A stretch of DNA of 64,000 bases from Deltaproteobacteria bacterium (GCA_016218965.1 JACRCP010000399.1:4710-68709), one strand, 5' to 3'; positions 10,128 through 40,796 are shown, counted from the stretch's first letter. Notes: generated by a model from the sequence alone, not told the origin. Numbers and translations: made by a program.

Positions 10128-11006
10128 TCAAAGATGATCAACCGTCTCGGCGGCGTGGTACGAGCTACGGACGAGCGGGCCGGAGAGGACGTGGCTGAAG
10201 CCGAGATCCCTCGCGTCGGCGGCCAGCTCATCGAACTCAAAGGGAGTGCAGTAACGCGCCACCTCGATGTTGGCCCGCCGCGGCCGGAGGTACTGGCCGA
10301 TCGTCAGGACCTCGACGCCGGCCCGGTGCAGATCGCGAAAACACTCCGACAACTGCTCGCGCGTCTCGCCCAGGCCGACCATGAGGCCGGATTTCACAAC
10401 AACAGGCTGTAGGCTGCAGGCTGTAGGCTGTGGGCCGCACCTGCGGAGCAGGGCGAGCGAGCGGTCGTAGTCCGCCTGGGGGCGGACTTCGGGGTAAAGG
10501 GCGCGGACTGTTTCGATATTGTGGTTCAGGACGTCGGGGCACGCCTTGAGCACACAGCCGAGCGCGTCGACATCGCCGTGGAAATCGGGGATGAGGACCT
10601 CCACTGTTGCACCGGGCAGAAGATCGCGGCAGGCCCTGACGCACGCGGCGAAATGCCCTGCGCCTCCGTCCGGGAGGTCGTCGCGCGTGACCGAGGTGAT
10701 GACCACGTGGCGGAGCCCAAGCCGTTTGGCCTCTGCGGCCACCCTGCGCGGTTCGTCGGGATCGGGCGCGTCGGGCACGCCGTGTCTTACCGCGCAGAAT
10801 GTGCAGTCGCGCGTGCAGGCGTCGCCGAGTATGAGGAACGTGGCCGTCCCCGCGCCAAAACACTCGCCCGCGTTTGGGCACCGCGCCTCCTCGCAGACGG
10901 TGTGGAGACCCCCCTCCCGAAGCCGCGCCCGAAGTGCGTGCGTCGTTCCCCGCGGCACCTGCCGCGCGCGGAGCCAGGGGGGGAGTCTGACGTGAGGGAC
11001 AGGCAT
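10128..11006 (-). CDS. lipA: lipoyl synthase
   Basis: Auxiliary cluster CEEARCPNAGEC and radical SAM cluster CTRDCTFC. Conserved KSGLMVGLGET and LTIGQYL motifs. Length 292 aa. Confidence 0.9.
   Translation of the reverse strand: MPVPHVRLPPWLRARQVPRGTTHALRARLREGGLHTVCEEARCPNAGECFGAGTATFLILGDACTRDCTFCAVRHGVPDAPDPDEPRRVAAEAKRLGLRHVVITSVTRDDLPDGGAGHFAACVRACRDLLPGATVEVLIPDFHGDVDALGCVLKACPDVLNHNIETVRALYPEVRPQADYDRSLALLRRCGPQPTACSLQPVVVKSGLMVGLGETREQLSECFRDLHRAGVEVLTIGQYLRPRRANIEVARYCTPFEFDELAADARDLGFSHVLSGPLVRSSYHAAETVDHL
10403..10430. repeat. tandem heptanucleotide repeat (CAGGCTG/CAGCCTR x4) inside lipA coding sequence
   Basis: Seen directly: caggctgtaggctg occurs twice in tandem at 10403-10430. 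Confidence 0.8.
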
Positions 11007-11160: not shown

Positions 11161-11829
11161 TCATTTGACATAGGCTCGGATGTCTCCAGCCCAATCGAGT
11201 TTCTTCACATGGGCAAAGCAAGTATCCGGACCCAGCTTCGCAAAGTCGTCGCGCGTCCAGATGTGGGCGACGCGAGAGCCCCACCAGAACTCGGATCGAT
11301 CCTGGATGTCTCCCGGCAGCACAGAGGCCCAGAGAAGTTCGTCGTTCGGCTTGCTCACCCTTTCGCAGAAGCTTCGATCCATCGCTCCCGCCCATTGGGC
11401 ATTGGCGTAGTAGACACCGCAGTTGACTACGGCCCAGTAGTTCTGAATGTGGATGAACTTCGGCGTCCCGTGCGCGCGACACCATTTCCAGAATGCCTCG
11501 TCCGGCCTCTTGAGTTGGACGGTGTCCCAGTCCAACCACAGAAACTCGCCGAATTCTTTCAGTGCCCACCGGCACATCCAGTGCTTCATCTTGTGGGCTG
11601 AGTCCCGATGGATCTCCAAGGGTGCATCATCGAAGACGCGGTGGACGCGCAGCCCGAACCCTTCGAGCTGGCGGGCAGACCCATCGTCCCCGGCCAGCAC
11701 GAGCAGATCGTCCCGGTAACCCGGATTGATGGCCAAACTGGCGGGGATCTCGGCGAGCGTGAACTTCGGCAGTTGCGTCACTCCCCCGCGGGTGTACGGA
11801 TAGAGCCCCGCTATCGCCGGAGGCGGCAT
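11161..11829 (-). CDS. hypothetical protein (Trp-rich; possible glycosyltransferase-like fold)
   Basis: ATG at complement 11829 overlaps the stop of the upstream gene, consistent with translational coupling. High GC3. No confident domain recognised. Confidence 0.5.
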   Translation of the reverse strand: MPPPAIAGLYPYTRGGVTQLPKFTLAEIPASLAINPGYRDDLLVLAGDDGSARQLEGFGLRVHRVFDDAPLEIHRDSAHKMKHWMCRWALKEFGEFLWLDWDTVQLKRPDEAFWKWCRAHGTPKFIHIQNYWAVVNCGVYYANAQWAGAMDRSFCERVSKPNDELLWASVLPGDIQDRSEFWWGSRVAHIWTRDDFAKLGPDTCFAHVKKLDWAGDIRAYVK

Positions 11830-13160
11830 ATCGCTTCCTCTCGGACTCCCCATCCCTGGTCGGCGGCATTGTCGAATCGCTGGAGCATCCCTCGTTGCAT
11901 TTCTGCGTCCTGCTGTTCGAACACCCTCCACGCGTTTGCTTCCTCGTCGGGCGGGAGCGTATAGCACAGGTCCGCAGCGTACTTGCGCATGCGACCGATG
12001 GTGGAAAGGACATGCTTCCAATTCGTGAGAGGCTTGAGCAAAAGGATCTCGCGTCGCTCAACCGATTCGATCGCGAGAGGTTCGATGACCGCGCGCCAGT
12101 AACTATCGGGCCGATGCTCCACGCCGACGGCCGAGAGTCCAATGTCAAAGCGAGCGAGGCGGGCCTCGAGCGTGCCCGGCTCGGTCTTGCGCTGTATCTC
12201 CAGCACACGGTTCCCGATCCTGAACGCCTCCGAATACGCCCTTTCCGGGAGCACGACCGCTCCGCGTTCGACCAAGGTCTTGATCAACGCCGCACGATCT
12301 TCGGGAGAGGGTGCCCACAAATCCAGATCCCTAGGACGACGGCCGTTCAGAAGCGCCTTGAACGCGCCGCCCGCGAAGAAAAATCGAGCGGGGCATTCGC
12401 TCCCGACGATCGGAGTGAGGTCCCACTTGGCGAATTCGATGACGTCAGTCTCGTTGAGCCCCACGAGCTGGGCCTCACCCCTTGTTCGGCGGTATTCGCG
12501 ATAGACCGTATGAAGCCCTTCGCAGTCGCGCCAGAAGAAAGCCGCTTCGAGGTACCAGGGCCAATCGCGTTTCCCGAGACACACACCCGCCAGCCTCGCG
12601 ACGGTCGCGGTGACCAGCGAATCGTGCGTCACGAAAACATGCAGGCCCGGGCTGCCACGCGCCTTCGCGAGCATGTGATGAACCAGATACCGCGCCGCGA
12701 ACTCGGGCAACGTCATCCCGGGGAGTGCGTGGTCGGCCGAAACAAGTTTCGCCATTACCGATTCGTGGTCGCTCTTTTCCCAGTTTCGGTACGCCAGCTC
12801 ACCGTCCAGAACATAGATGCCGGGATGGCCCAACGTCGTGTCCGGTTGTGTTGGCAGATTGGTACCGGCTCCCACTCCGATCTCCACGGCCGTTTGCACG
12901 CAACGAAGGACCGGGCTCGCCGAAAGTGACCTCAAACGTCCCGAAATCCGCTGACCCAAGGACCGGGCAATTCGAATGCCATCATCCGTAATTGGCAACG
13001 TGAAGCCTTCTTCGCCCGCGCGCAGCGGCGGCCGAACCGAATGGCGAATGAGCATTGCGACCGGCAAATCGGCGGGCATTCGCTCAAGCCACGTGACCGT
13101 AGACGACGGCACCTGCCAGTCGATGAAATCACCCATTTGAACCTCCTCTGAGAACGACAA
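11811..13160 (-). CDS. fusion protein: histidine phosphatase (PGAM-like, RHS motif) N-terminal domain plus Pol-beta-superfamily nucleotidyltransferase C-terminal domain
   Basis: LIRHSVRPP (RHG-type motif) is followed by histidine-phosphatase-like features. The C-terminal half carries FFFAGGAFKALLNGRRPRDLDLW, matching the G[GS]-x9-13-DxD NTase motif. Confidence 0.6.
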   Translation of the reverse strand: MSFSEEVQMGDFIDWQVPSSTVTWLERMPADLPVAMLIRHSVRPPLRAGEEGFTLPITDDGIRIARSLGQRISGRLRSLSASPVLRCVQTAVEIGVGAGTNLPTQPDTTLGHPGIYVLDGELAYRNWEKSDHESVMAKLVSADHALPGMTLPEFAARYLVHHMLAKARGSPGLHVFVTHDSLVTATVARLAGVCLGKRDWPWYLEAAFFWRDCEGLHTVYREYRRTRGEAQLVGLNETDVIEFAKWDLTPIVGSECPARFFFAGGAFKALLNGRRPRDLDLWAPSPEDRAALIKTLVERGAVVLPERAYSEAFRIGNRVLEIQRKTEPGTLEARLARFDIGLSAVGVEHRPDSYWRAVIEPLAIESVERREILLLKPLTNWKHVLSTIGRMRKYAADLCYTLPPDEEANAWRVFEQQDAEMQRGMLQRFDNAADQGWGVREEAICRLRR

Positions 13161-13848
13161 CCGTCGTCCCGGTTTCGTCGATCACCTCAAGCCCTCCGTC
13201 CTGACGCTCGACCCTTGCCTGCCCGTTGTAAAACGGCTCGACCGCCGCGAACCGACGTGAATAAATAGGGCGACCTGCGAAATCGACGTGCAGCCAACCC
13301 GCTTGATCGCGCGATCTCGCAAAGCCCTTGTGAAACACGTCGAGGTCCAGAAACCAGCGACCGTGAGTTGGCCGGCCTCTGACGTCAACATGCGTCGAGA
13401 GTCCGTTGTCTGCCTGCACGACGGCGATACCGTCGCGGTAGTCTCCGGCGTACCGCCATCGCGCCTCGTAGGCCGGTTGGCCGTCCAGTTGGATGTGGAG
13501 GTAACGGCCTTTTTCGTCTCGCACGGTGCAACGGCCTCCTTGGAAGTTGCCGCACCATGCGTATCGTTGCGAGTAAGCGTCGGCCCCACCGGGGCCGACA
13601 TGATGCCAACCGTCACGCGACACAACCGCCGCCCGATCCTCATAGAATCCGAACGTGCGGGCGAACCGGCGAGCGTATGCGGGACTGCCGTCGATGCCGA
13701 TGTGCCACGCCTCTTCTCCCCGCTTCACTGGGGCGAAACCCGGTGCATGGTATGCGAGTACCTCGTCGTACCTCTCCACGTACAACGGCCTCCCCGCCCG
13801 AAGGTGATGGGTCCGGTCGGGAGCCACGTGTGTTTCAGCCCAGGTCAT
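13129..13848 (-). CDS. WG repeat-containing protein
   Basis: Four or more repeats of the type AY..RF....F.DGxAxV.....W..(I/V)D..G.P. ATG at complement 13848 has a perfect GGAGGTG RBS and overlaps the stop of the upstream gene. Confidence 0.65.
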   Translation of the reverse strand: MTWAETHVAPDRTHHLRAGRPLYVERYDEVLAYHAPGFAPVKRGEEAWHIGIDGSPAYARRFARTFGFYEDRAAVVSRDGWHHVGPGGADAYSQRYAWCGNFQGGRCTVRDEKGRYLHIQLDGQPAYEARWRYAGDYRDGIAVVQADNGLSTHVDVRGRPTHGRWFLDLDVFHKGFARSRDQAGWLHVDFAGRPIYSRRFAAVEPFYNGQARVERQDGGLEVIDETGTTVVVLRGGSNG

Positions 13849-16094
13849 GTCGTCACCTCCAAGGGTTGTCTCATGTTGCAGATTCGGCAGTTCGGATGGC
13901 TGCCCCACCCTGCGACGAACTTCCGGTACCGCTCCGATGTCCAGATATCCATGAACGAACGCTCCAACAGGTTCCCGAACTTCCCAAACGCCGCACGTTC
14001 TTTGCTGGGACAACAACAGACCTGAAAGGAGCCGTCGGCGTCGATCCACGCTTCTCTGCCGAGAAACGGACAACGGGTAGTGCCGGAGTCTGGAAGAGTC
14101 GTCTCGGGCGAAAGGCTGTCAACATTCGCCAACACGATCCTTCGATCGTTCGGCAACGTTTCCTTTGCGGCGATCCGATGCAAAGCATCCACCACGCGAT
14201 TCCAACGAGTCGCACTTTCCCGGGAGCGGCGAAGGGACTGTTCCGGAAGCTCAGGCCAGGTCACCCAAAGGTGATGCCCCTTGAACCGATCCATCCGGTG
14301 TTCGATCGCCCACAAGAGCAGCTTCGGCAGTTGGTCGAGGTTGTCCTCCATGAACGTCACCTGGAGCGTGGCGGTGCTGACGCGACCGGTCTTTTGCTCG
14401 TACCGTCGCTTCAAAGCCATGTAGTGCGCAACATCCTCCAACTGTCGAACTGGACGGAGGCCCTTCATGATGGCCTCTGCCGTCTGTGGATCGAAGCCGT
14501 TGATGCTGAACTTGACGTCGGACGCCACCGGCAGGATCTCCGCCGCCCAAGCCTCGACGCCTTTTTGGGGGAACGTACCGTTCGTGGTCAGGTTCACTTT
14601 CACGTCGGTGCGCGCCGCCAACTCCAGCATCTGGGAGAACTGTGGGTACAGCAACGGTTCGCCCATAGTCGAGGGGATGATTTCCTGCAGGCCGCGTTGA
14701 GTCAGTTCCACCACCGTTCGTTCCACCAAGGCGAAATCCAGTAGCGGGAGCGCCGCCGGCGAGTCAGTCGAAAAGTGGCTGTGAGTATCACACATGCGGC
14801 AATGCAGATTGCACAGACCCGGGTTGGTGACGAATGTAACTCGACGAGGCGCCGGACGAAGAGGCAAGATTGGCCTCTCCCTGTCCCGAAGCAGTCTCAT
14901 GTATATGCGCTCGATCGATGCGGCGTCCTCATGGATTGTTCGGACGCTCCCCCGCTGCGGACGCAAGTCCGTCAAGAGATCGGGTTGGTCGATCACCTTC
15001 TGTAGCAACGCAGAGAGGGCCTTCTTGTCGCCGAGTGGAAACAACAGACCATTCTTGCCGTCGCGGACGAGCTCCGCCATTCCTCCCGCGTGAGATGTGA
15101 TTACGGGGACCTCCGCCAACAGCGCCTCTTGGATCACCAGCGGGGAGTTCTCCGACCAAACGGACGGGACGACCAAGACGTCCATGCTTTTCAGCGCATC
15201 GTTTACCTCACCGTTGTGGTAGGCCCCGTTAAAGCGGACGCGCGGGTCGTTGTTGCACAATGCGCCGAGCCACGATCGTTGGGAATCTACCGCTCCCCAT
15301 ACATTCAGCGTCGCCGCGCCGCGTGTTGCGGTGAAGGCCCTCAACAGAAGATCGATTCCCTTCGCCGGAATGATGCGGCCCATGAAACCGAAGCGCACAG
15401 GGCTGTCGCTTTTGACCTTCGGCCGAAGGTGGATTCGTTCGACATCGAATCCGTACGGGGAAAAAATGACGCTGTCGGCGGGCACCCCCTGTGCAGTGAA
15501 AAACGACTCAAGCGTCCGCGACGGCGCAAGGAACACATCAATTTGCCTTGTCACTTCCTGCATGTGCCGGCGGTACTCTTGGACCTGCCGCAGATCGATC
15601 CAGTCTTTGAAAAAGTGCCGAGCGCACTCATAGCAGTCGGCTGTTGAAGGTCCAGCGCACAACCTCATTTCGGGTCGGAGCAGTTGGCCGCGGAAGCAGA
15701 ACATCCAGAAATCGTGGATGGTCAGGAGAGTCGGGAGGCCGAACTCCCCCTTGGCGATGGCGGGAAGTTGGGTAGAGAGGTGCGAAAGGTGGCCGAAGTG
15801 GACGACGTCGGGGTTCGTATCCCGAAGCATCGCACGAAAGGCGTCATCCATACGGGGATCAAGGTATTTGTCGCGAAACGTGTAGTCGCGCGCCGGTTTG
15901 TTGACCCGTCGCATTTCGACCCCGTCCTCGCGAGTTCCGGTGACCTCATACGGCTTGGCGTACGGGTTTTCGACACGAGTGAACACGAACACCTCGTGGC
16001 TTTTCGCGAGTTGTCGGCAAAGGTTCCACGTGTAGACCTCTGAGCCCGCCATGTAGTGTGGGGGGTAGCCGTGAATCACTTGGAGCAGCTTCAA
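13845..16094 (-). CDS. bifunctional glycosyltransferase family 4 (GT4) / radical SAM (twitch/SPASM-like) fusion protein
   Basis: TTG start with an AAGGAGG RBS 6 nt upstream yields MKLLQVIHGYPP, a typical GT4 N-terminus. GT4 EX7E motif ENSPLVIQE is present. The C-terminal half carries CNLHCRMC (CxxxCxxC) and C-x13-G-x4-C ... CRIC auxiliary-cluster cysteines. Confidence 0.75.
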   Translation of the reverse strand: MKLLQVIHGYPPHYMAGSEVYTWNLCRQLAKSHEVFVFTRVENPYAKPYEVTGTREDGVEMRRVNKPARDYTFRDKYLDPRMDDAFRAMLRDTNPDVVHFGHLSHLSTQLPAIAKGEFGLPTLLTIHDFWMFCFRGQLLRPEMRLCAGPSTADCYECARHFFKDWIDLRQVQEYRRHMQEVTRQIDVFLAPSRTLESFFTAQGVPADSVIFSPYGFDVERIHLRPKVKSDSPVRFGFMGRIIPAKGIDLLLRAFTATRGAATLNVWGAVDSQRSWLGALCNNDPRVRFNGAYHNGEVNDALKSMDVLVVPSVWSENSPLVIQEALLAEVPVITSHAGGMAELVRDGKNGLLFPLGDKKALSALLQKVIDQPDLLTDLRPQRGSVRTIHEDAASIERIYMRLLRDRERPILPLRPAPRRVTFVTNPGLCNLHCRMCDTHSHFSTDSPAALPLLDFALVERTVVELTQRGLQEIIPSTMGEPLLYPQFSQMLELAARTDVKVNLTTNGTFPQKGVEAWAAEILPVASDVKFSINGFDPQTAEAIMKGLRPVRQLEDVAHYMALKRRYEQKTGRVSTATLQVTFMEDNLDQLPKLLLWAIEHRMDRFKGHHLWVTWPELPEQSLRRSRESATRWNRVVDALHRIAAKETLPNDRRIVLANVDSLSPETTLPDSGTTRCPFLGREAWIDADGSFQVCCCPSKERAAFGKFGNLLERSFMDIWTSERYRKFVAGWGSHPNCRICNMRQPLEVTT

Positions 16095-16485
16095 GTCCGC
16101 CTCCTTTGCGGGCACGCACCCGCATCGGTTGCGAAAACGCGCCCGTTTTGGACACACGTCTCTCTTTTTTGGTTTGTGTTGCGCACGAGAGGCCTCCGAT
16201 CCTCTTTGGGGAGTCCATCCGGACAGCCATCTAGAACGCCTGGAGCACGGCGCGCCATTGCAACACTTGCTGGAATGTGGATGTTGTCAAAATGTTGGTC
16301 ACCCGATTGATCTCCGGGGTACCCACTGTCACCTGGGATGCGCTCCCGAGGTCAGCCCGACCGTGGCCAGTTTGCGCGGCGGGTACGTAGCATAAACGAT
16401 ATCCATTCGTTCTAGGCAAACTCAACTTCCGGCTTCCGGCTTGGCCTCGCCCTGACTGACGGCCTTTGGAAGTCCGGTGTCGTGC

Positions 16486-16541
16486 CGGCGAGCAAGCTCG
16501 CCGGAATGAAAGGCGCAAGCGAGCTTGCGCACTCCAAAACG
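16486..16541 (-). terminator. two tandem GC-rich hairpins downstream of the beta-propeller gene (candidate terminator, no U-tract)
   Basis: ccggcgag-caag-ctcgccgg and gcgcaag-cgag-cttgcgc stems, read directly. Confidence 0.25.
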
Positions 16542-16551
16542 CGGCGCGCGC

Positions 16552-18558
16552 CTACTTGTAGATGACTTCCACCTGCGTGTCGAGGAACTGGGGGGCGAAC
16601 TGAAAGAGGGAGGAGGAACCCGAGTAGACGACGAACGCCCACTGCCTGCCGAGGTTGATTGAATCGGCGGCCACGTGGATGTCGGTGGGCATGAACGACG
16701 CCTCGGGCGGGAACATCGCGAAGGCGTTGAAACCTATGTGGAACGAGAAGACCATGTCGCGCACCGACGGCTGCGTGCCGCTCTGCACGGTGAGCGCGAG
16801 GTGCGGCTTGTCGGTCTCGAATGCGGGCGGGAAGACGAACTGCGTCCCCGGGGCCGCACGCCCAAGAATCCCGAGCCCCTCGACGAAGACCGTCCACATC
16901 CCCTTGGGCCGCACCTGCCACGACACGGCGCCCGCGACGCATTCGGCCGAGGGCATCGGTCCCTGCACCGTCATGAGCGTTTTTTCGACGCCGGTTATCA
17001 AAAACTCCCCCGCGGCGATCGGCGAGCCGTCATCGCAAGTTGTGCGCGGCGTTCCGTCGGCGCTGGTGAGCACCAGCCAATCGCTCCCCGCCTCGACGCC
17101 CGCGAGCACGAAGTCCCTTCCGGCCTCCGAAAACGTCGCAGAGTCGGTCGCCGTGCCGGAGGCGCCCGAGATGACCACGCCTTCGTACGTCACGAAGCCG
17201 GACGCCTGGTTGACGAACTGGCGCAAAAGCGGCGAGATCGCGACGCCGTAGTTGCGGTCCGAGCGGTCCCAGCCCTCGATGCGGGGGTACGTCGCAAAGA
17301 ACTGCTCGCTCTGCGAGAGCGTCACGCCGCCGACCGAAAGCTCGGGGACCGTGATGGACGGCGCGGTGGATGCGGCCTCGACGAAAAGCCCCTGAAGCGC
17401 TGCGTCCTTCCCAAGAATCTGGACGCCCGACGCGTACGTGTGCCGCGCGCACCCCGATACGTCGAGCGCCGAGACCGAGCCGTTGATCATCGAAAGGAGC
17501 GCGACCGTCCCCGGGCAGCCCCGTGTCGCGTCGGTCGAGAGCGTGCCGCCGAGCGAGGTCGCGGGACTTAGGGCCAGCGCCTGCGGGAAGCCGAACACCG
17601 AGGGTATCATGGTGCCAAGCGGCCTGGACGGCGAGAGGCCGAAGGTCCGCGGCGTCAGCGTCGCGAGGTCAATCACCCAAAGGCCCGGCGCGGACTTCGA
17701 CGAGGCGAGCAGGATGCGGCCCGCCCCCGCCTCGTCCGGGATGGCCTTGACGACCTCGGTCGGGTAGCCGAGGTCGATCTCGGTGATGGCCTTGGTCACG
17801 GTGTCGGCTACTGCCACGGCCTTGCCGGAGCGGTTCGAGAGATAGACGGTGTCGCCGTCGGGGCTCACATCCAGCCGCCCCGGGACGCCCGGAAGGTCCG
17901 CCTCCCAAAGAAACTTGTGAACACCCGGGTTTTCGAGTCCGCCCGGAAGAAATGCGGTCGTGTCGATCACGATGAGCCGGCCCTTGTTGTCCCCGGTGTC
18001 GGCGGCGACGTAGAGCCGCGTCGTCCCGGTCGAGCGGCTGTACGCCGCGGCGAGGTCGGTCATCATCAGCCCGACCTGGATTCGCCGGGGCTTTTCGGTG
18101 ACGGAGTCGGACCGGACGAACTCGCGACCGTTCCAGGCCTCGGCCCCGGCCTCGATGTTTAAGGCCGTGTCGATCACCGATATGTCGCGCGAGGCCGAGT
18201 TGACGACGTAGACCTTCTGCTGGTCGGTCGAGACTACCATCCGCGTCGGCCGCGACCCGACGGGTATGATGAGCGGGAAGTATGGGATCGGGGCCTCCTG
18301 GAACACGCGAAGGGAGACGTCGACGACCTTCACGTTGTCCTTGGCGACGTCGCTCACGTACGCGAACGTGTGGGCGAGCGGGTCGGTCCCCGCGAAAGGC
18401 GCGGCCGCCACGACGCTGTAGGGTTCAATGAGGTTCCCCGCCGTGTACGCCGCCGGGCTCGAGCACGCGGCGCCCGTGAAGAGCGAACAGGCGCAAAAAA
18501 GCGCGACCAGAGTGTCGGGAAACCCCCGCTGAAGGCTTGAGCACGTGTGCGGGCGCAC
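16552..18558 (-). CDS. lipoprotein with YVTN-type beta-propeller repeats
   Basis: A GTG start at complement 18558 gives a lipoprotein signal (hydrophobic LVALFCACSLFTGAAC|SS, lipobox GAAC). Repeated VYVVNSASRDISVID-type blades. The upstream ATG at 18759 would add a non-coding-like Arg-rich extension. Confidence 0.6.
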   Translation of the reverse strand: MRPHTCSSLQRGFPDTLVALFCACSLFTGAACSSPAAYTAGNLIEPYSVVAAAPFAGTDPLAHTFAYVSDVAKDNVKVVDVSLRVFQEAPIPYFPLIIPVGSRPTRMVVSTDQQKVYVVNSASRDISVIDTALNIEAGAEAWNGREFVRSDSVTEKPRRIQVGLMMTDLAAAYSRSTGTTRLYVAADTGDNKGRLIVIDTTAFLPGGLENPGVHKFLWEADLPGVPGRLDVSPDGDTVYLSNRSGKAVAVADTVTKAITEIDLGYPTEVVKAIPDEAGAGRILLASSKSAPGLWVIDLATLTPRTFGLSPSRPLGTMIPSVFGFPQALALSPATSLGGTLSTDATRGCPGTVALLSMINGSVSALDVSGCARHTYASGVQILGKDAALQGLFVEAASTAPSITVPELSVGGVTLSQSEQFFATYPRIEGWDRSDRNYGVAISPLLRQFVNQASGFVTYEGVVISGASGTATDSATFSEAGRDFVLAGVEAGSDWLVLTSADGTPRTTCDDGSPIAAGEFLITGVEKTLMTVQGPMPSAECVAGAVSWQVRPKGMWTVFVEGLGILGRAAPGTQFVFPPAFETDKPHLALTVQSGTQPSVRDMVFSFHIGFNAFAMFPPEASFMPTDIHVAADSINLGRQWAFVVYSGSSSLFQFAPQFLDTQVEVIYK

Positions 18559-18765
18559 CGCCCCGGCACGCCCTTCCACCCTGTCTCGCGCAGGCTCCGC
18601 CGGCCGTCCCGTCGTTTCTGGCGCTTGACGTTGGCGAGACAGGGCTCCAGGACGCGTCCAGCCTTCGCAGCCGAAGCCGCTGCTTCGTCGGAGTAGGCCC
18701 GGGGCGGTGCTGCGTGCGTCCCTTGCCTTGCGCCATGCGCCTTGTGCCGTGTGCCTCATGCCTCC

Positions 18766-20091
18766 TCAGTACTCCCCCTTCGCCTTGATTCGCGGCGTGC
18801 CGATCACGGCGACCGTCCGGTGCGAAAGCGAAGCCGGATCAATCGAAAGGACCGCGACGGTGGAGTTCTCGAAGTTTGCTACCAGCGCCCGCTGACCGGC
18901 GCCAACGTCGTAAAACGCCATCCAGTACGGGCCGTCAAAACCGTCGCGCAGGAGCGCGATCTCACTGAGAGTCGCACCGTCGAAGACGTGCACGTAGTCC
19001 TCGTCGGTGCACGCGACATAAAGGAGGCGGCGCGCGGGCACGTCGTGCTCCCACATGAACAGCCTCTCGGGCCATATCCCGGCGGGGACATAGTCCATCG
19101 CCTCAAGATACGGTGTCCCCGCGGAATCCGTTCCGATCGACATCCTGATGAGCGCGTCGGGTCCCCTGGTGAGCAGGTACAACGTGCCGCCGTCGGGGGT
19201 GAGCACGAGCGATTTCTGCTCGCTGCCCCCGGCCACGTAGCCGATGTCAAACATCCAACCGGCGGTCCCGTTTGCGGCAAGCGCCACCGGGTCGCCCGCG
19301 CCCAGCAGATTGGCGCCCTCCAGGAGGAACCGGTTCGCGACGTACATTCGCCCCGAGGCGGCGACGGCAATGTCGCTTAGGCCCGCGGGGGACTGGCCGA
19401 GCGAAAAATCCGCCTCGAACACCGGGCCCGCCGCGGCCGGGTCGGGCGTCTCGGCCTCAACGCACGAGACTATGCCGAACTTCAGGTGGGCGACGTAGAC
19501 ACATCCGGCGGTCGCGTCGACCGGGTTGGGACCGTACGCAAGAGTGAACGGGTCGTCCGAGCCCGTCGTGATGATGTGCCCCTTGTGGCAGTCGCCGGTG
19601 AACGCCGATGCCTGATCGGCCAAGGTGTCGACGGTGGCCCCCCGGCAATCGAGACGCGCGCCGCCCTCGAGCACGTCAAGCCACGCGACGGCGCCGTCCT
19701 GCCGCATCGACACGAAAAGCCGCGACGCGGCGGGGTTGAGTACCGCGGTCCCGCCGAAGCTGCCTGTCCGCACGGTGGCATCCTCGACGATGGCGCCGGC
19801 GAAACGCGTGGCGGCGCAGGTGGCCGTTCCGCAACCCGTGCCCGACGCGTCGGCCATGATCTCGCGCTCGAGCTCTTCGAGGTCCAGGACCTTCACCGTG
19901 CCGTTTTTGTAGCCCAAGTCGAAGTTGCTCGAGACCACGTAGGCGTAGCGTTGCGACGGGTGAACGACGATCGAGGTGGGAAAGTAGAAAGTCCCCGGGG
20001 GCTGTTCGTCCTTCTCGGTGGGCGAACAGCCGGGCAAAAACGCCGCCGCGGCGGCAAGGAGCAAAAACATGATGTGGCGGTGCCCAGACAT
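18766..20091 (-). CDS. lipoprotein with beta-propeller repeats (paralog of upstream gene)
   Basis: Lipobox-containing signal peptide FLPGC|S. Blades include YAYVVSSNFD..GTVKVLDL, RMYVANR, RLLYVACTDEDYVHVFD. Confidence 0.6.
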   Translation of the reverse strand: MSGHRHIMFLLLAAAAAFLPGCSPTEKDEQPPGTFYFPTSIVVHPSQRYAYVVSSNFDLGYKNGTVKVLDLEELEREIMADASGTGCGTATCAATRFAGAIVEDATVRTGSFGGTAVLNPAASRLFVSMRQDGAVAWLDVLEGGARLDCRGATVDTLADQASAFTGDCHKGHIITTGSDDPFTLAYGPNPVDATAGCVYVAHLKFGIVSCVEAETPDPAAAGPVFEADFSLGQSPAGLSDIAVAASGRMYVANRFLLEGANLLGAGDPVALAANGTAGWMFDIGYVAGGSEQKSLVLTPDGGTLYLLTRGPDALIRMSIGTDSAGTPYLEAMDYVPAGIWPERLFMWEHDVPARRLLYVACTDEDYVHVFDGATLSEIALLRDGFDGPYWMAFYDVGAGQRALVANFENSTVAVLSIDPASLSHRTVAVIGTPRIKAKGEY

Positions 20092-21169: not shown

Positions 21170-24100
21170 TCAGCGCGAGGTGGACGCGGGGGTGACGCCC
21201 CCGACGGTTTCCATCTTGAAAAGGATCTCCCGCATGGTCTTGACCGCTTCGTCATTTGGGGCGATCCCCGTCGCGTCGTACGCTCCTGTGATGATGGCGA
21301 GTTCATAGGCGCCTTGTCCGAATCGGATGCCGCGACTGTTGCTCAGTACATGGTCAAGCGCCGCCCGAAGGCCTTTTGCCGCATCCTCCCTGGCACCCAA
21401 CCGAGCGAGCGTCACCACCGCGTTCATCAGCGGATGAATCGATTCCATCTCGGTGTCAGCCATTGCCACGGCAAGCGACGAGCGGGCGAGCTCGGCTGCT
21501 TTCTCCGCGCGTCCGCGCCCAGCATGCCAACGGGCGGCTTCGGTCAATACTTCGGCCAGTTCGCGACGCACCTGGTCGTTGGCAGGGTTCGTTCGGAGGA
21601 TCCTGGCGTACACCTCCTCCACCCGTTCAAAATCCCCTACCCTGTCGAAAGCTTTTGCGAGTTTGACGACCTGATAGCCCGACCAACTGCCGCCGTTTTT
21701 GAAGACGACATCGAGCACCCGTTTGAAATAGTTTTCCACCGTCGCAGTCTCTCCCAAGAGCCGATAGCCGACAGCCAGGGGGATCAGATACTCCGGACGG
21801 CGGGTCTCCTTCGCGGCTGGATCCAGAACGTCCCGCGCTCGGTCAAGGCACGCGCGAGCCCTTGCATGTTCGCCCGCGGCGGCAAGCTCCACGCCGGCCT
21901 CGGCATCCATTGAGGAGATGAACGCGTGCGCCGATTCGATTTCGTCTTGCGCTCCGCACCCGGGGTCTTTCTCGGCCTTCAGTTTCCCGATGATCTCGTA
22001 GGCCCTTTCCGTCAACTTGGCGACCGTCTCGAAGTCACCCAGTCGGGCAAAGCGCCGGAGGAGATACGCAAATCCTTCAGCCTGTTTCCTCGGTACGAAA
22101 TTTTGCCATCTGTCAGTATCTCTCGCGAGCGACGGCAGGAGATCGGTCGCGGCGAGGCCCCATCGCAGAAGATCTCTCGCCTCGTTCTTCAAGCCGTTGT
22201 CCAACAAAAGGTCGCTCAGAAATGATGCTATCTCGGCTTCTGCCCCAAAAACCGCGGTTGGGTCCAGATTCAGCACCACCCCCTGGGCTTTGCGCAGAGC
22301 CTCGATCGCCTTCTCCCGTCTGTCCATTTGGAGATAGTACAAAACCGGCTCCAGGAGGATGGTCACAGTGTCGAAGACATTTTCGCCTTCGGTGTCTGCC
22401 ATGATCCTCGCGCGAAGCGTGCGAAGAACATCGTCATGGGAGCGCGCGCCGGATCGTTCGGACGTATCGACCTCTGACTCAGCCGCGCGCCGCCCGTCGC
22501 GGGATTGTATCCAAGCTATTGCGTCCTTGACCTGCGCCGTGAGCAGACCGATCTTCCTGCGAGTCCTCGCCTCAAGAACGGCTTTCGAATCCCGCAAAGG
22601 TATAGCCCGCCGTTCGCGCAGTATTACAGGGTCGTAGAAGACCACTGCGTTCACCTTCCCCCGGGTCGCGAGAATCGCTCTGGCGTTTCCAGCAAGCGCC
22701 CCGAGGTCGTAGTCCTGGTCGTGTGACCCGCACGTGATTCCCCCAAACGACGCCGTGTCTTCCAGCGACACGTACTCGAAACCCAAGTTGTTTTCGGTTG
22801 AGTAACCATCGAGCACGAAGTCCGGCGACACTCCGGGATCGGGGCTAATTAGCTTGGCGGCATTGAGATCGAAGTCCGTCCGGTCGAACGTGATCCCTGC
22901 TTTCGCCATCTCCGCGATGATGGTCTCTCGGGCGATCTCTTCGGAGAGAAAGGTGGCGTCTCCATAGGCGAAATCACCGGTAGAACCGGCCCCTCTGCCG
23001 TGCCGGAACAGCGGCGCTACCCGTGTGGCGGAGGGCTTGTCTGCGACCGGTTCCGGACGAGTGATCCAATGGGTGCGGTGATGATCGCATCCGGTTCTGA
23101 CCTGATCGCAAGGACCTCGTGTGGCACTCACACAGACAGACGACATGAACGTCTCTCGTGCGCCTTCATCGAACAGCAAGCCATTCCTGGAAAACGCCTC
23201 GGCGATTTCAATCAGGTCGTTGGGCCTGTGCCAGTCCGCGTGCGTGTTGTTTTCGACATCGAGGACCGTCCGCAGAATCCGGGCAGCCTTCTCCTCATCT
23301 CCCAACCCGTTTAGAATCTCCGCGGCGCGGATCGCGGCACCGGGGCCATGCCCGTAGTGGTGAACGCTTGCAACAGCGACATCGACCGCCCGAGCGAGGA
23401 GCTTCTCCGTTTCCGGCGTACTGCCCCTTTTCAGATGCCAGCGGGCGGCATGAAGCATCTGAAGGGCTTTGAAGAAAAGCACCTCTCCAGAAGACTCCCG
23501 CGCCTCGACAAGGATGGATTCGATGATCTGATCCGCCTCCGCCTTGCGGCCGGCCTCTTCGAGCGCGTAGGCGATGTCCACCAACTGGTCGATTTTCTCC
23601 GCCTTGCCATGGATGGAAACCTCAAAGGCCTTGCGGGCGGAGGCCAGCCGCTTGATTGCCGTTTCGCGTTCGCCGAAAAGCAGATGCGTCTTCGCCAAGT
23701 CGAGCAGAGCCTCACCCGGACCCGGGTTGGTTTCGTCGAGGACCGCCTCCGCCTTTTTTGCGTACTCTGCGGCCCTTTTCAGATTCCCTTTCCGGGCGTA
23801 TTGGAGACCGAGTGCGGCATGCACGCCAAGGGTACAAACACCGGGTGAAAGCCCCGCCTGCTCCTTCGCGCACGGGCCTTCCCTTTGGATCTTCTTTAGC
23901 AACTCCTCCGCGAATTCGAAATCCCCAGCCTCGGCGAACTTCGGGGCAAGCCACTTGTACAACGAGAGACGGTTCTCCTTCTTTTCATCCGGTTTGCTTT
24001 CCCAGAATCGCTCTGTCTTAAATATCGCCCTGGCATCCTTGATGTCGCCGAGCCGCAGATAGATCTCGGCGGCCTGCAGGTAGTACGCCGGCTTGTAGTA

Positions 24101-24424
24101 GACGTCCTGATCGGCCCCCTCGGTCTTGAGCAGGATCAGCGCACGCGCGACATACTGCCTCGCCCGTGCCTTGTCGCCTGCGCTCAGCCACGCCTTCGCC
24201 AGTCTCAGGAAGACAGGCGAACGTCCAAACCCGCCTTTTGTCTTTTCCAAAAGAGAAGAGACCGCTTCGAGGGCGGCGCTGGTGTTTGGCACTTTCCTGC
24301 CGCTCCCTGTAGTTTCGGTCGACGGTGCATCGGCCTTCGGAGTCGACCCTTCGAGCGCGAGGGCGGGGGCGAGCATCACGGCGCATAGGGCGGAAAAAAA
24401 CGCGGACGTCGTGAGTATACGCAT
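21170..24424 (-). CDS. secreted tetratricopeptide (TPR) repeat protein, 1084 aa
   Basis: Signal peptide MRILTTSAFFSALCAVMLAPALALEG at ATG complement 24424. Many A/L-rich TPR-like helical pairs. The central ~200 aa lack TPR character. Confidence 0.65.
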   Translation of the reverse strand: MRILTTSAFFSALCAVMLAPALALEGSTPKADAPSTETTGSGRKVPNTSAALEAVSSLLEKTKGGFGRSPVFLRLAKAWLSAGDKARARQYVARALILLKTEGADQDVYYKPAYYLQAAEIYLRLGDIKDARAIFKTERFWESKPDEKKENRLSLYKWLAPKFAEAGDFEFAEELLKKIQREGPCAKEQAGLSPGVCTLGVHAALGLQYARKGNLKRAAEYAKKAEAVLDETNPGPGEALLDLAKTHLLFGERETAIKRLASARKAFEVSIHGKAEKIDQLVDIAYALEEAGRKAEADQIIESILVEARESSGEVLFFKALQMLHAARWHLKRGSTPETEKLLARAVDVAVASVHHYGHGPGAAIRAAEILNGLGDEEKAARILRTVLDVENNTHADWHRPNDLIEIAEAFSRNGLLFDEGARETFMSSVCVSATRGPCDQVRTGCDHHRTHWITRPEPVADKPSATRVAPLFRHGRGAGSTGDFAYGDATFLSEEIARETIIAEMAKAGITFDRTDFDLNAAKLISPDPGVSPDFVLDGYSTENNLGFEYVSLEDTASFGGITCGSHDQDYDLGALAGNARAILATRGKVNAVVFYDPVILRERRAIPLRDSKAVLEARTRRKIGLLTAQVKDAIAWIQSRDGRRAAESEVDTSERSGARSHDDVLRTLRARIMADTEGENVFDTVTILLEPVLYYLQMDRREKAIEALRKAQGVVLNLDPTAVFGAEAEIASFLSDLLLDNGLKNEARDLLRWGLAATDLLPSLARDTDRWQNFVPRKQAEGFAYLLRRFARLGDFETVAKLTERAYEIIGKLKAEKDPGCGAQDEIESAHAFISSMDAEAGVELAAAGEHARARACLDRARDVLDPAAKETRRPEYLIPLAVGYRLLGETATVENYFKRVLDVVFKNGGSWSGYQVVKLAKAFDRVGDFERVEEVYARILRTNPANDQVRRELAEVLTEAARWHAGRGRAEKAAELARSSLAVAMADTEMESIHPLMNAVVTLARLGAREDAAKGLRAALDHVLSNSRGIRFGQGAYELAIITGAYDATGIAPNDEAVKTMREILFKMETVGGVTPASTSR

Positions 24425-24789
24425 GGTTCCACTCCCAACGAAATGACGTGCGACCATTCTACCTGAAAACGGACGGGTGTGGTATGTGACCGAGGTCGCG
24501 CGCACGACAGGCGTCCCCGCGTGCGAGTAGGACAAACAAGGCACCTCTTTCTGCCCCGAACGGGGGATTCGGAGGCAACGGAGTGGCAAACGGTGATCCG
24601 GGGGATCGCTGCGCGGGCACGAAGCCGGCCGCGCCCGCCACTTCCCCTGCGCTTTCGCTTTTTTCCCGGGCGGACACAGTCCGGTGCCAGGGACGGGTCC
24701 GAAGCAACCAAGTCTCGACGGCTTGATATCGCGCGGGAATCTGGCGGACGCCGGTCGATGGTGGCTGGCGGTTTCGGACAGGGGGCTTT

Positions 24790-37446: not shown

Positions 37447-38778
37447 AGGCTGACAGCTTCTTTTGAGTTTTCATGGCCCCGTCTCCATTCCGCTTTCCAA
37501 GGCCCGGTTACTTCTTCCTCAACGTCCTGGCCGCAAGGAGCGCGACAATGGCGATCGTCACGCCTGCCCCAGCCAGCACCCAAACCGTCTTTCGCCCTGC
37601 CCCCTCGTCCTTCTTGACTCCGTGTTCCTGCGGTCGCCCGGCATCGCCGGCATCGCCGCCCCCGTCTTTTCCCCCTCCCGTGGTTCCTCGTTTTTCTTCG
37701 GGTGTTCCCGACGGTTCTTTCCCGCCATCTCTGGTTTCGACATTTTGCCTGCGGTGTTCCCGAGCTTTTTGGTCCTCTTCTACTAACTGTCTCATGCGAA
37801 TAGCTTCCGACAGGTCTACAGTTCCCCTCAACTCGTTGAGTCTGTTTTCCACGTATTCTCTCACAACACCCCATTCGGTTTCCTTCGCCAACTCCTCCAA
37901 CTCCCGTTCCGTGAACTGGTGTGTTTCCAAGTCTTTGCACACAATGAACACGTCACGGCAGTTGTTTTTCGTCGCATCAATTACTTCGTCCATTGTTTTG
38001 ATGTTGATCCTCGACAGTCTGATAGCGCCTTCACAGAGCGCCCTCAAGATCTCCTCGTCACCCCGGGCGTGCATGTATCGCTCACTCGGATCGAGATCAC
38101 ACTCAGCAGCGCCCCTCTTGAGAACATCGACGATCGTTCTTTCTTTGTCGTCACGAACCACTGCCGTATAGTATCCGGACCTGATGTCTGCAAACTGCCA
38201 ACACGCCTCACGTTTCAGGGAGTTTCGAAACACACGTTCATCGATCTGTCTTTCTTTGAACCTCGCTATCAGTCGATTGAGGGCATCGTAGCAACGCGAC
38301 AAGGATTCCAAGTCGAGAGGCGGTTTCGGAAGTACGATCTCCCTTTCGGCGTCAGCATCTGCAACGCCGGTCGATACGACGATTGCCAAAGCACAAATAA
38401 ACGTTGGTTTGCCGAAGCGTGGAAAAGGAATCATAGTTTCCTCTCGTAGTTCTTACCCGGTGCCCCCCAGTCATGGTCATTCAACGTCCCTGTCCCCAAG
38501 GACTTCCCATCCGGCCCCTTTTTTTGCCACGCCTTGGCAGCGCATTCGGCGACGTCTTCCTCGTCGCCACGCTTCGACACCGGATACGGAACTTTGCCAA
38601 TCCAATTGACACCCAGGATGGTGTTGCTGAAATGCATGCCCATCGGTTTTGTGGGAAAATTCGCTGCGTTGCACTGCGTCCGTCGACAGGAACTTTCATG
38701 GGGGGTTTTCCCCCTCCAGAGGGAGCATGCGGGAGCATAAAGGAAGCGGCGGGGGATTGCAAATCCGGTTTCGGGCCG
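37433..38778. mobile_element. putative inserted low-GC segment (~1.35 kb) flanked by imperfect direct repeats; no integrase/transposase recognised
   Basis: Local GC is ~50% against ~68% in the flanks. It carries one minus-strand CDS. It lies between DR copies and truncates the DUF5615 gene. Confidence 0.35.
37508..38434 (-). CDS. hypothetical secreted protein with C-terminal TM anchor and basic tail (low-GC cargo gene)
   Basis: Signal peptide MIPFPRFGKPTFICALAIVVSTGVADA. C-terminus is G/D/K-rich followed by TVWVLAGAGVTIAIVALLAARTLRKK. GAGGAAA RBS. Confidence 0.55.
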   Translation of the reverse strand: MIPFPRFGKPTFICALAIVVSTGVADADAEREIVLPKPPLDLESLSRCYDALNRLIARFKERQIDERVFRNSLKREACWQFADIRSGYYTAVVRDDKERTIVDVLKRGAAECDLDPSERYMHARGDEEILRALCEGAIRLSRINIKTMDEVIDATKNNCRDVFIVCKDLETHQFTERELEELAKETEWGVVREYVENRLNELRGTVDLSEAIRMRQLVEEDQKAREHRRQNVETRDGGKEPSGTPEEKRGTTGGGKDGGGDAGDAGRPQEHGVKKDEGAGRKTVWVLAGAGVTIAIVALLAARTLRKK

Positions 38779-38813
38779 GTTTCGGGCCTTCGAGTTCGAG
38801 TTCTTGACGGCCG
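38779..38813. repeat. direct repeat copy 2 (gtttcgggccttcgagttcGAGTTCttgacggccg), embedded in a run of three GGTTTCGGGC units (38766-38826)
   Basis: Seen directly. Confidence 0.7.
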
Positions 38814-38860
38814 CGCGGTTTCGGGCGAAGATTGGCCGCCCGTATGAGAGAGGAGAACAC

Positions 38861-40159
38861 GTGAAGCCCGAAGCCAGGATCGGCGAGATCGCGAAGTTCG
38901 AGGGGAAGGAAGTGACGCTCTGCGGCTGGGTGTACAACATCCGTTCGTCGGGGAAGATACACTTCCTGCTTCTGCGCGACGGGTCGGGGGTCATCCAGTG
39001 CGTGGCGGGAGCAAAGGACGTTTCGCCCGGGACGTTCGAGGCGATGAAGTCTCTTACGCAGGAGTCGTCGGTCATCGTCACCGGGTCCGTGCGCGCCGAA
39101 AAAAGGGCGCCGCACTGCGGTTTTGAGCTGACGCTAAAGGACGTCAAGATCCTCCAGATTGCCAAGGACTACCCCATCTCGCCCAAGGAGCACGGGCCGG
39201 CCTTTCTGCTCGACAACCGGCACCTCTGGCTCCGCTCGCTTAGGCAGGTCGCCATCATGAAGGTGCGCAACACCATAATCAGGGCCATCCGCGACTTCTT
39301 CGACCAAAACGGTTTTCTGCTCATAGACTCCCCCATCTTCACACCGGCGGCGTGCGAAGGGACGAGTACGCTTTTCGAAACGAACTACTTCGAAACCAAG
39401 GCGTATCTTACGCAGTCGGGCCAGCTCTACAACGAGGCCACGGCCATGGCGTTTGGCAAGGTCTACTGTTTCGGCCCCACATTCCGCGCCGAAAAGAGCA
39501 AGACGCGCCGGCATCTCACCGAGTTCTGGATGGTCGAGCCCGAGATGGCGTTTTACGACCTTGGTGACACCATGGACGTGTGCGAGGACTTCCTCTGCTT
39601 TGTCGTCTCGCGCGTGCTCGAACGCAACCGCGCGGACCTCGACGTGCTTGAGCGTCCGGCCGGCCCGCTCGAAAACGTCAGGAAACCGTTTCCCCGGATC
39701 ACGCACGCCGAGGCGATTGCGGTCCTCAGAAAGGCCGGCGCCGAGATCGCCGACAACGCCGATTTTGGCGGCGACGAGGAGACCATTCTCACGAAGCAGT
39801 TCGACCGGCCGATCATGGTCCACCGCTACCCCGCCGAGGTCAAGGCGTTCTACATGAAAGGGGACCCCGCCGACCGCTCGAAGGCGCTGTGCGTGGATGT
39901 TCTTGCGCCCGAGGGGTACGGCGAGGTCATCGGAGGCGGGCAGAGGGAGGACGACCTCGACACGCTCGTAGCCGCAATAAAAAAACACGGCCTCCCCGAG
40001 GAGGCTTTCACGTGGTACCTCGACCTGCGCCGCTACGGGTCGGTCCCGCACAGCGGGTTCGGCTTGGGCGTAGAGCGCACGGTGGCGTGGCTCTGCGGCC
40101 TGCACCACGTGAGAGAAACCATTCCGTTCCCGAGGATGATGGAGCGCGTCACCCCATAG
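38861..40159 (+). CDS. asnS: asparagine--tRNA ligase
   Basis: GTG start with a GAGAGGAG RBS. Class II motifs [21 protein letters not shown] and [13 protein letters not shown]. Anticodon-binding OB N-terminus. No GAD insertion, so AsnRS type. Confidence 0.88.
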
Positions 40160-40165
40160 GCCAAG

Positions 40166-40549: not shown

Positions 40550-40796
40550 GGGTGCGTTTTGCGAACCCGGGCCGCCTGCCGCACGGACGCGACCCGGTTG
40601 CGCCGTAGCGGCGTTTTCGGGCCTCACTGGGCGTCCGGACGGGCGCCAACAACGGACGGCGCGTCCGAAAACGATGCGGAGGCGCGGCCGGGGAGCAAGA
40701 CGTGCGGCCCCCGGGACTATTCAACGCACCTCCGCAAGAACGCGGGTTGAGGACGGGAGTTTGCGTTTCGTCCTTCGGTTCTTTATAGTCGCCGGC

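Follow-up and report, generated by a model that had tools for sequence, protein, structure and literature searches.

The closest described relative of the operon reported here is the Undecim Cluster of Wolbachia prophage WO (WD0611–WD0621), an island found in most arthropod Wolbachia that is highly expressed and moves between unrelated insect symbionts. It comprises a GlmU-like gene, an epimerase gene, WD0613 encoding a fusion of a glycosyltransferase (GT) with a radical S-adenosylmethionine (SAM) domain, WD0614, and genes for a PhyH dioxygenase, an ATP-binding cassette (ABC) exporter, two threonine aldolases, a transporter, UDP-glucose 6-dehydrogenase and a DMT permease. Baldridge et al. (2015) described WD0613 as a GT1, radical SAM and SPASM fusion and WD0614 as a KWG-repeat protein fused to an O-methyltransferase, found WD0612 and WD0613 to be the most abundantly expressed proteins of the WD0611–WD0620 region, and reported syntenic homologues in Desulfovibrio hydrothermalis, Haliangium, Capnocytophaga and Saprospira (PMC4701759). 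The island was named by Bordenstein and Bordenstein (2022), whose guess at its role was envelope glycan synthesis, methylation and antibiotic export (PMC9203015); according to a paper of December 2025 its functions are still unknown and it is duplicated in an obligate strain (PMC12801941). In this work we analyzed 64,000 nucleotides of DNA from a Deltaproteobacteria bacterium (GCA_016218965.1, JACRCP010000399.1:4710-68709), called the window below, with positions counted from its first letter. A four-gene operon on its minus strand (11161–16094; genes g1 to g4) is a divergent free-living variant of the Undecim core with different accessory genes.

The relationship came to light only through a tblastn search of phage records, in which g1 aligned with the gene of Wolbachia phage WO (wMel) at 37% identity and 99% coverage (E = 3e-160); a literature search by the domain names of the fusion had returned nothing. 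Judged by these alignments, g1 is a full-length homologue of WD0613 (UC3), and g2 a homologue of the WG-containing N-terminal half of WD0614 (UC4; 45% identity over 210 aa), a protein annotated as hypothetical that holds a WG module and an O-methyltransferase. Identity of g1 to the Rickettsia plasmid genes is 35%. The core also occurs on Rickettsia plasmids pREIS2 and pREIP, on a plasmid of R. asiatica and in the insect symbiont Symbiodolus; on pREIP and on 20-kb Arsenophonus plasmids it is accompanied by PhyH, ABC exporter and aldolase genes. The first-pass annotation of the window had presented the operon as a candidate for an undescribed system, a claim that must be withdrawn, the fusion and its WG partner having been described as WD0613/WD0614 of the Undecim Cluster (PMC4701759; PMC9203015).

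The two loci share the order of the GT4, radical SAM and SPASM domains in g1 and WD0613, tight operon-like packing and signs of horizontal transfer. The window lacks the UC2 epimerase, the O-methyltransferase half of UC4, the UC5 PhyH dioxygenase, the UC6 ABC exporter, the UC7/8 aldolases, and UC1, UC9, UC10 (Ugd) and UC11, and tblastn of the remaining Undecim proteins against the window gave no match at E = 1e-5. Conversely, its histidine phosphatase-nucleotidyltransferase fusion and GT-A glycosyltransferase are absent from the Wolbachia island. The window host is a free-living, high-GC metagenome-assembled genome (MAG) of Myxococcota type, and no phage or plasmid genes were seen beside the operon. 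Finally, g1 belongs to the shorter of two cassette types (type A, about 750 aa), whereas WD0613 (778 aa) belongs to type B.

Domain composition of the four proteins

The four open reading frames (ORFs) overlap tightly and form one operon, as had been proposed from the first inspection; all junctions were read in the sequence, and all features of the operon given below lie on the minus strand. Gene g1 (13845–16094; 749 aa, NCBI product P0001) starts with TTG at 16094, with AAGGAGG 7 nt upstream. Its stop codon (13847–13845) shares an ATGA overlap with the ATG of g2 at 13848 (g2, 13129–13848; 239 aa), a translationally coupled junction. The start of g3 had been placed at TTG 13160, giving 449 aa and a 32-nt overlap with g2. 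This start is possible, but ATG 13136 (g3, 11811–13136; 441 aa) is more likely, because it is preceded by GGAGG, its overlap with the g2 stop is 8 nt and it yields the 441-aa NCBI product P0241; in addition, the alignment of g3 homologues begins only at about residue 9 of the long form. The last gene, g4 (11161–11829; 222 aa), begins with ATG at 11829 and overlaps g3, whose stop ends at 11811, by 19 nt. The N-terminus of its homologues reads MPPP.IAGLYPY.

Here and below, Pfam matches were counted only above the curated cut-off of each family. The g1 protein matched Glyco_transf_4 (61.9 bits), Glycos_transf_1 (87.5 bits) and Glyco_trans_1_4 (100.8 bits), and also GT4-conflict (35.4 bits, cut-off 26). 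Its GT4 domain (residues 17–378; 14961–16046) carries E315-x7-E323 (ENSPLVIQE) and G-R-x4-K245-G, and these residues are at least 97% conserved in 78 homologues spanning types A and B, whose alignment was used for all statements on residue conservation in g1. Matches to both GT4 models and the E-x7-E motif place this part of the protein among the GT4 glycosyltransferases, with a predicted GT-B fold.

The radical SAM core (residues 428–545; 14460–14813) matched PF04055 with 42.8 bits against a cut-off of 29.5. Its CX3CX2C motif, C428-x3-C432-x2-C435 (CNLHCRMC; 14790–14813, Cys428 being the codon tgc at 14813–14811), is invariant in all 78 homologues, so that motif and model match alike identify a member of the radical SAM superfamily. 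The C-terminal region (residues 675–740; 13875–14072) gave a SPASM match (PF13186; 40.6 bits, cut-off 21.5), and the predicted GT4, radical SAM and SPASM/twitch fusion is thus borne out. The motifs quoted for it in the first-pass annotation are all present, except that the C-terminal spacing is x12 rather than x13: C675-x12-G688-x4-C693-C694, followed by C736-R-I-C739. These five cysteines are invariant; C695 occurs in only 22 of the 78 homologues. Full SPASM domains have about seven cysteines for two auxiliary clusters, and twitch domains about four for one. The spacing of the five in g1 suggests a single, twitch-like auxiliary cluster.

Four further cysteines (C133, C146, C154 and C157; C-x12-C-x7-C-x2-C, 15624–15698) form an insert in the GT domain's acceptor-side half, and all four are retained in every one of the 78 homologues, whichever the cassette type. 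They probably make up a Zn or Fe-S site. Metal or Fe-S sites are unusual in GT4 domains, and this one might link the halves of g1 electronically or structurally.

In total, about 155 positions of g1 are at least 97% conserved, at identities of 38–65%, from Bacteroidales to Rickettsiales and including an Asgard archaeon MAG. The genome scan, which took one genome per species, gave at least 586 confirmed g1 matches; counts of loci in this paper refer to the best 80. The fusion is full length in all 80 of these and in more than 120 protein clusters (44–65% identity), which rules out a frameshifted pair of separate genes. No NCBIfam family reached its cut-off for the window proteins or their conserved neighbours. 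The best model for g1 was the "tungsten cofactor oxidoreductase radical SAM maturase" (73 bits, cut-off 380), and the named GT4 families nearest its GT half were EpsE, the PEP-CTERM-associated stp2/stp3, TuaC and WcaL (67–69 bits, cut-off 400). No solved structure is close. For the radical SAM part the nearest is anSME (E = 2e-6); the GT part comes closest to Alr3699 (a heterocyst-envelope protein), sucrose-phosphate synthase and enzymes of MshA type. Weak matches were obtained with the peptide maturases MftC (1e-6), ScmF (2e-10), SuiB, PqqE and YydG (E = 0.004–0.007) and with BlsE (E = 0.007), and BtrN aligned on the SPASM/twitch region only (E = 0.034).

The g2 protein matched WG_beta_rep (PF14903) with 27.1 bits (cut-off 25.6; homologues score up to 45.6 bits), in accordance with its initial description as a WG-repeat partner. 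Its alignment reveals six repeats of about 35 aa with one invariant histidine each, and this pattern together with the model match assigns it to the WG_beta_rep family. No relative with a solved structure was found, even at E = 10. The protein stops after the WG module, and no methyltransferase was detected in it by Pfam. In the relatives this module is mostly the N-terminal domain of an O-methyltransferase (OMT), phosphatase, dioxygenase or GT4 enzyme: WG::OMT is the commonest arrangement, others being WG::OMT::His-phosphatase, PhyH::WG::OMT, WG::OMT::GT4, WG::His-phosphatase and WG::His-phosphatase::nucleotidyltransferase. One protein of the last kind (P0343, 698 aa) unites the counterparts of window g2 and g3 in one chain; it had been taken for a g3::g4 fusion, which is wrong.

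Predicted structures were made for g3 and g4. In g3 the fusion of a histidine phosphatase with a nucleotidyltransferase, anticipated from the motifs RHS and GGAFKALLNGRRPRDLDLW, was recovered with both motifs in place, and the predicted structure is confident (pLDDT 91.6). The N-terminal half (residues about 20–220; 12477–13079) matched His_Phos_1 above its cut-off (29.5 bits) and keeps R31-H32-S33, R78 and H171; motif, second catalytic histidine and arginine, and fold are those of branch 1 of the histidine phosphatase superfamily. The C-terminal domain (residues about 229–441; 11814–12452) is structurally closest to the head and neck of CCA/A-adding enzymes and has the features of a class II nucleotidyltransferase head domain, with GGAFKxLLxGxxPRD270-L-D272 and RFD331-I-x-L-S-A in which DxD and RRD-like motifs are preserved. 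With about 210 aa in all, the domain stops behind the neck, without the tRNA-binding body and tail, and on our reading of the alignment the base-selecting EDxxR motif was not found before the RxRRY segment. For these two reasons g3 should not be filed as a CCA-adding enzyme.

The fourth gene, previously left as unknown, can be identified. Although Pfam assigned no family to it, g4 combines a Rossmann-like GT-A fold with an invariant DxD site (D100-W-D102) and is a GT8-like glycosyltransferase of the GT-A DxD class.

Distribution, cassette layouts and mosaic origin

Carriers of the fusion include Sorangium, Polyangium, Myxococcus, Pyxidicoccus, Azospira oryzae, Ectothiorhodospira, Ramlibacter, Pseudodesulfovibrio and Fibrobacter succinogenes. 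It was also found in Bacteroidales and Treponema from the rumen, in Rickettsiales and Planctomycetota, in a cyanobacterial symbiont of a sponge and in an Asgard archaeon MAG. In the latter, a Promethearchaeia MAG (L022; JAZGEW010000084.1, 8001–10968 of a 136-kb contig), a full-length g1 homologue of 42% identity is directly followed by a WG gene; either inter-domain transfer or a binning error would explain a cassette on this Asgard-assigned contig.

The neighbourhood of g1 is conserved, as the first-pass annotation required of a genuine system. A WG module is present in 78 of the 80 loci, a histidine phosphatase in 53 and a short-chain dehydrogenase/reductase (SDR) resembling UDP-hexose 4-epimerases in 51, followed by a nucleotidyltransferase domain (16 loci), a NodU-like carbamoyltransferase (15 loci) and g4 (8–9 loci). 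Two layouts are seen repeatedly. In type B, with g1 of about 780 aa, the genes encode the SDR, g1, WG::O-methyltransferase, a phosphatase often fused to a nucleotidyltransferase, and sometimes g4; in type A (g1 of 735–750 aa) they are g1, occasionally g4, phosphatase, carbamoyltransferase, WG and SDR. The WG gene lies directly after g1 in most type-B loci and several genes away in type-A loci, and in many loci g1 and WG are found without other partners. The accessory genes of the relatives encode sugar or small-molecule tailoring enzymes; the cassettes of symbionts have in addition an ABC exporter, a PhyH dioxygenase, threonine-aldolase-like enzymes dependent on pyridoxal phosphate (PLP) and UDP-glucose 6-dehydrogenase; a uronate-forming gene lies nearby in only one of the 80 loci. 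Apart from the cassette genes, ORFs of 90 aa or more formed no conserved cluster across the 80 loci, so that no recurring polymerase, flippase, lipid-carrier transferase or polysaccharide exporter is present. Every conserved small ORF in them is a shadow frame inside a conserved gene, none being intergenic.

Four of the loci, in some Bacteroidales and Fibrobacter cassettes, contain a second small, stand-alone radical SAM/SPASM protein (271 aa; L081, 12900–13715, also L009, L014 and L019). Its best NCBIfam models are the same as those of the radical SAM part of g1, and it may be a paralogue that performs a second radical step.

Comparison of the window genes with both cassette types revealed a mixed pattern. 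The closest relative of g1 is of type A (65% identity to L001, an uncultured Myxococcales MAG), its identity to type-B genes being about 40%. By contrast, g2, g3 and g4 are 60–72%, 50–58% and 59–71% identical to type-B genes, for instance about 70%, 56% and 70% to those of Polyangium jinanense (L069), and between g2 and the WG gene of L001 identity falls to about 41%. The cassette also deviates in composition, with a GC content of 60.4% versus 64.8% for the window and GC at third codon positions of 67–75% versus 80–86% in the flanking genes. These mixed identities and the deviating GC values indicate that the operon was acquired horizontally and is a recombinant between cassette types; g1 and its partners appear to be interchangeable between them. 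The window operon itself has no SDR, methyltransferase or carbamoyltransferase, the sole SDR-like match in the window being weak and 19 kb away.

The cassette tends to be found in mobile or island contexts. In Azospira oryzae DSM 21223 (L031, 4421–6331) a Tn7-like TniQ/HTH gene lies upstream of it, and in a Sandaracinaceae-like metagenome contig (L083, 5749–9976) it is directly preceded by type I restriction-modification genes (HsdM, HsdR N-terminal domain). On the 20-kb plasmid of Arsenophonus, a symbiont of louse flies, panB, panC and panE stand beside the cassette (L086, 3286–5965); a nutritional trait and the cassette therefore travel together on these plasmids.

Wolbachia is genetically intractable, and the window shows the two-gene Undecim core as a self-standing cassette in free-living bacteria. 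Since the core is carried by culturable, tractable species (Azospira oryzae, Sorangium, Polyangium, Myxococcus, Fibrobacter succinogenes), a direct route to its product and to the chemistry of the fusion is available, and a long-standing Wolbachia puzzle is tied to a cassette of culturable bacteria. The variable accessories (methyl- versus carbamoyl-transfer, a second sugar, the phosphatase-nucleotidyltransferase, an exporter) suggest that several related metabolites are made instead of a single compound.

Possible product and alternative readings

The gene content across the relatives is that of a sugar-based small-molecule pathway, with an epimerase, two kinds of glycosyltransferase, methyl or carbamoyl capping, a dioxygenase, PLP-dependent aldolases and an exporter. 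It can be hypothesized, at what we judge to be about even chances, that the window operon is a horizontally mobile variant of the cassette that makes a small, radically modified glycoside. The substrates, the order of the steps, the radical chemistry and the role of the WG protein we infer as follows. The donor of the GT4 domain of g1 would be a nucleotide sugar, probably a UDP-hexose or a UDP-uronate, whose sugar the domain transfers to an acceptor; because g1 and WG stand alone in many loci, this acceptor would have to come from primary metabolism. The fused radical SAM domain, with one SAM-cleaving and one twitch-type auxiliary cluster, would then abstract hydrogen from the same intermediate, the radical step on the sugar part being an oxidation or epimerisation, a decarboxylation or dehydration, or a C-C coupling. 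The WG protein may act as an obligatory partner that binds the intermediate or docks tailoring enzymes. By removing phosphate and transferring a nucleotidyl group, g3 might process a phosphorylated intermediate or make an activated sugar, and g4 would add a second sugar. The product would be a small modified glycoside, which the relatives may further O-methylate, carbamoylate, hydroxylate and export.

In the known pathways with BtrM/BtrN, BlsD/BlsE and TunA/B/D/G, a glycosyltransferase works together with a radical SAM enzyme whose target is a sugar; they serve here as analogies, not as homologues. In butirosin/neomycin synthesis, a GT4 enzyme (BtrM) and a radical SAM dehydrogenase of twitch type with a single auxiliary cluster (BtrN) likewise act on a sugar-like small molecule, and the C-x17-C...C-x2-C spacing in g1 resembles the auxiliary-cluster ligands of BtrN. 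The activities fused in g1 are separate there, however, the similarity is only remote, and neither 2-deoxy-scyllo-inosose synthase nor an aminotransferase occurs in any locus examined. The "aminoglycoside cluster" of Rickettsia buchneri proved to be a different locus (PIG-L, btrR, hemL and others), and the terms radical SAM and glycosyltransferase are absent from the paper describing it (PMC8770908).

The blasticidin S pathway offers a second likeness. BlsD makes cytosylglucuronic acid, the sugar ring of which is then altered by BlsE, a SPASM-type radical SAM decarboxylase. The similarity of the cassette to this pair of a glycosyltransferase and a sugar-directed radical SAM enzyme is very weak; the UDP-glucose 6-dehydrogenase of the Wolbachia island is a point of likeness to the uronic-acid glycoside route, but the window operon contains no uronate-forming gene. 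In tunicamycin synthesis, TunA (SDR), TunB (radical SAM), TunD (glycosyltransferase) and TunG (histidine phosphatase; PMC6965331) represent the same four enzyme classes as the most conserved set of the cassette family. TunB (338 aa) is about the size of the radical SAM part of g1, TunB and TunD being likened to g1 by class and size alone. The cassette SDR, unlike TunA, is of the ordinary UDP-hexose 4-epimerase type (TunA ranks 20th among its matches), and acyltransferase, deacetylase and acyl-carrier genes are missing from the cassette; a tunicamycin-type pathway was thus retained as an analogy only.

A number of points weigh against a small glycoside. A distinct substrate-binding module joined to several tailoring enzymes would be expected of macromolecule or peptide pathways sooner than of small-molecule ones, and the CCA-like nucleotidyltransferase is not the usual fold for nucleotide-sugar synthesis. 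Genes for an exporter, epimerase, methyltransferase or carbamoyltransferase are absent from the window copy. The nearest named GT4 families of g1 are exopolysaccharide and lipopolysaccharide (LPS) transferases, the role guessed in print for WD0613 is the synthesis of envelope glycans (PMC9203015), and no member of the cassette has a known product, substrate or phenotype (PMC12801941).

A broader proposal is put forward only tentatively: that g1 and the WG protein suffice as a minimal machine to make a sugar or nucleoside-sugar metabolite with a radical modification, that this metabolite is the chemical output of the Undecim Cluster, shared by free-living bacteria, the Asgard MAG, symbiont plasmids and phage WO, and that the WG protein is a histidine-rich beta-repeat partner of a new kind. 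If true, glycosyl transfer and radical chemistry would be coupled in one polypeptide, with a product common to hundreds of free-living bacteria and symbionts.

The best surviving alternative, which we nevertheless regard as unlikely, is an envelope glycan. According to it, the substrate of g1 and g4 would be an exopolysaccharide, LPS or a lipid-linked glycan, to which they add sugars; a sugar of the polymer would be modified by the radical SAM domain, and the WG module would bind carbohydrate and recruit the methyltransferase or phosphatase that modifies its end. A binding module fused to terminal-modifying enzymes would suit such a polymer, the Wolbachia island contains UDP-glucose 6-dehydrogenase and a GlmU-like gene, and this interpretation is the one given in the literature (PMC9203015; PMC4701759). 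The nearest GT4 families (EpsE, stp2/stp3, TuaC, WcaL) and the presence of Alr3699 among the solved relatives point the same way, but the family scores lie far below the cut-offs, as given above. The export and polymerization functions that such a pathway would need do not recur in the 80 loci, the conservation of g1 across phyla is unusually high for an envelope transferase, and the cassette travels on 20-kb plasmids and phage with an ABC exporter and PLP aldolases.

Modification of a protein appears distinctly unlikely. Here the WG protein itself, for example at the histidines of its repeats, or another protein would be glycosylated and radically modified by g1. The WG gene is nearly always found with g1 and in the window is translationally coupled to it; across type-B loci WG is more conserved than g1, with its one invariant histidine per repeat; and SPASM enzymes often act on proteins or peptides, anSME being the nearest solved structure. 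However, it would be odd for a substrate to serve mostly as the N-terminal domain of enzymes, as the WG module does, and to lie several genes from g1, as in type-A loci. In addition, the O-methyltransferase of the relatives belongs to Methyltransf_2, a family of small-molecule O-methyltransferases.

A nucleotide or nucleic-acid system, that is a conflict or RNA-end modification system in which g1 makes a modified nucleotide or nucleoside sugar and the nucleotidyltransferase, phosphatase, methyltransferase and an occasional P-loop domain have an RNA end or a nucleotide as their target, we consider very unlikely. The likeness of the g3 C-terminal domain to CCA/A-adding enzymes, the weak matches of the radical SAM domain to viperin and MoaA, which act on nucleotides, the GT4-conflict match, the siting of the cassette in mobile surroundings (the TniQ gene of Azospira, the type I restriction genes of L083, phage WO, plasmids) and the use of the same enzyme classes in nucleoside-sugar pathways of tunicamycin type are consistent with it. 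Yet PADLOC gave no defence-system match, the radical SAM core showing only a generic likeness to viperin (E = 1.7e-8) and g2, g3 and g4 matching nothing. The nucleotidyltransferase domain, lacking the tRNA-binding parts and with EDxxR not found in its alignment, is an accessory present in just 16 of 80 loci, and the SDR of the relatives is not TunA-like.

As to the pathway guessed at in the first-pass annotation, its "unusual glycoconjugate" was the better half, and the other half, a peptide of RiPP type (made on the ribosome and modified after translation) crosslinked by the SPASM radical SAM domain and glycosylated by the GT4 domain, is highly improbable in spite of the Pfam SPASM match and the weak similarity to MftC, ScmF, SuiB, PqqE and YydG: there is no conserved precursor ORF in the 80 loci and no credible one in the window spacer, the overlapping genes leave no room for one inside the operon, Pfam and NCBIfam detected no RiPP recognition element (RRE/PqqD), protease or peptide-exporter family in the four window proteins, and the conserved partners are an epimerase, a phosphatase, carbamoyl- or methyltransferases and glycosyltransferases. 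The peptide maturases MftC, PqqE, SuiB and anSME do share with g1 a radical SAM core followed by a cysteine-rich auxiliary-cluster domain; unlike them, g1 has five invariant auxiliary cysteines rather than about seven and a glycosyltransferase N-terminus, and is accompanied by neither a peptide-recognition domain nor a precursor gene.

Surroundings of the operon

The spacer upstream of g1 (16095–16512, minus strand, about 420 nt) presumably contains the promoter and 5' leader of the operon. A terminator-like hairpin at 16530–16513 closes the gene upstream of it. An Rfam search of the leader found no riboswitch or other known RNA, and the ORFs present in the spacer are all unconserved.

Two large minus-strand ORFs at 16552–20091 adjoin the operon upstream, one of 735 aa (no Pfam family) and one of 441 aa (a sub-threshold match to a Lactonase beta-propeller). 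They are not parts of the cassette, since they adjoin it in none of the 80 related loci. Directly downstream of the operon lies lipA (10128–11006). Farther away, at 37508–40627, three consecutive minus-strand ORFs (308, 244 and 497 aa) without a Pfam family coincide with a GC content of 0.59 at 38–40 kb and may represent another acquired island. Low GC (0.595–0.599) was also observed at 20–24 kb, where an ORF of 1139 aa with tetratricopeptide (TPR) repeats occupies positions 21170–24589.

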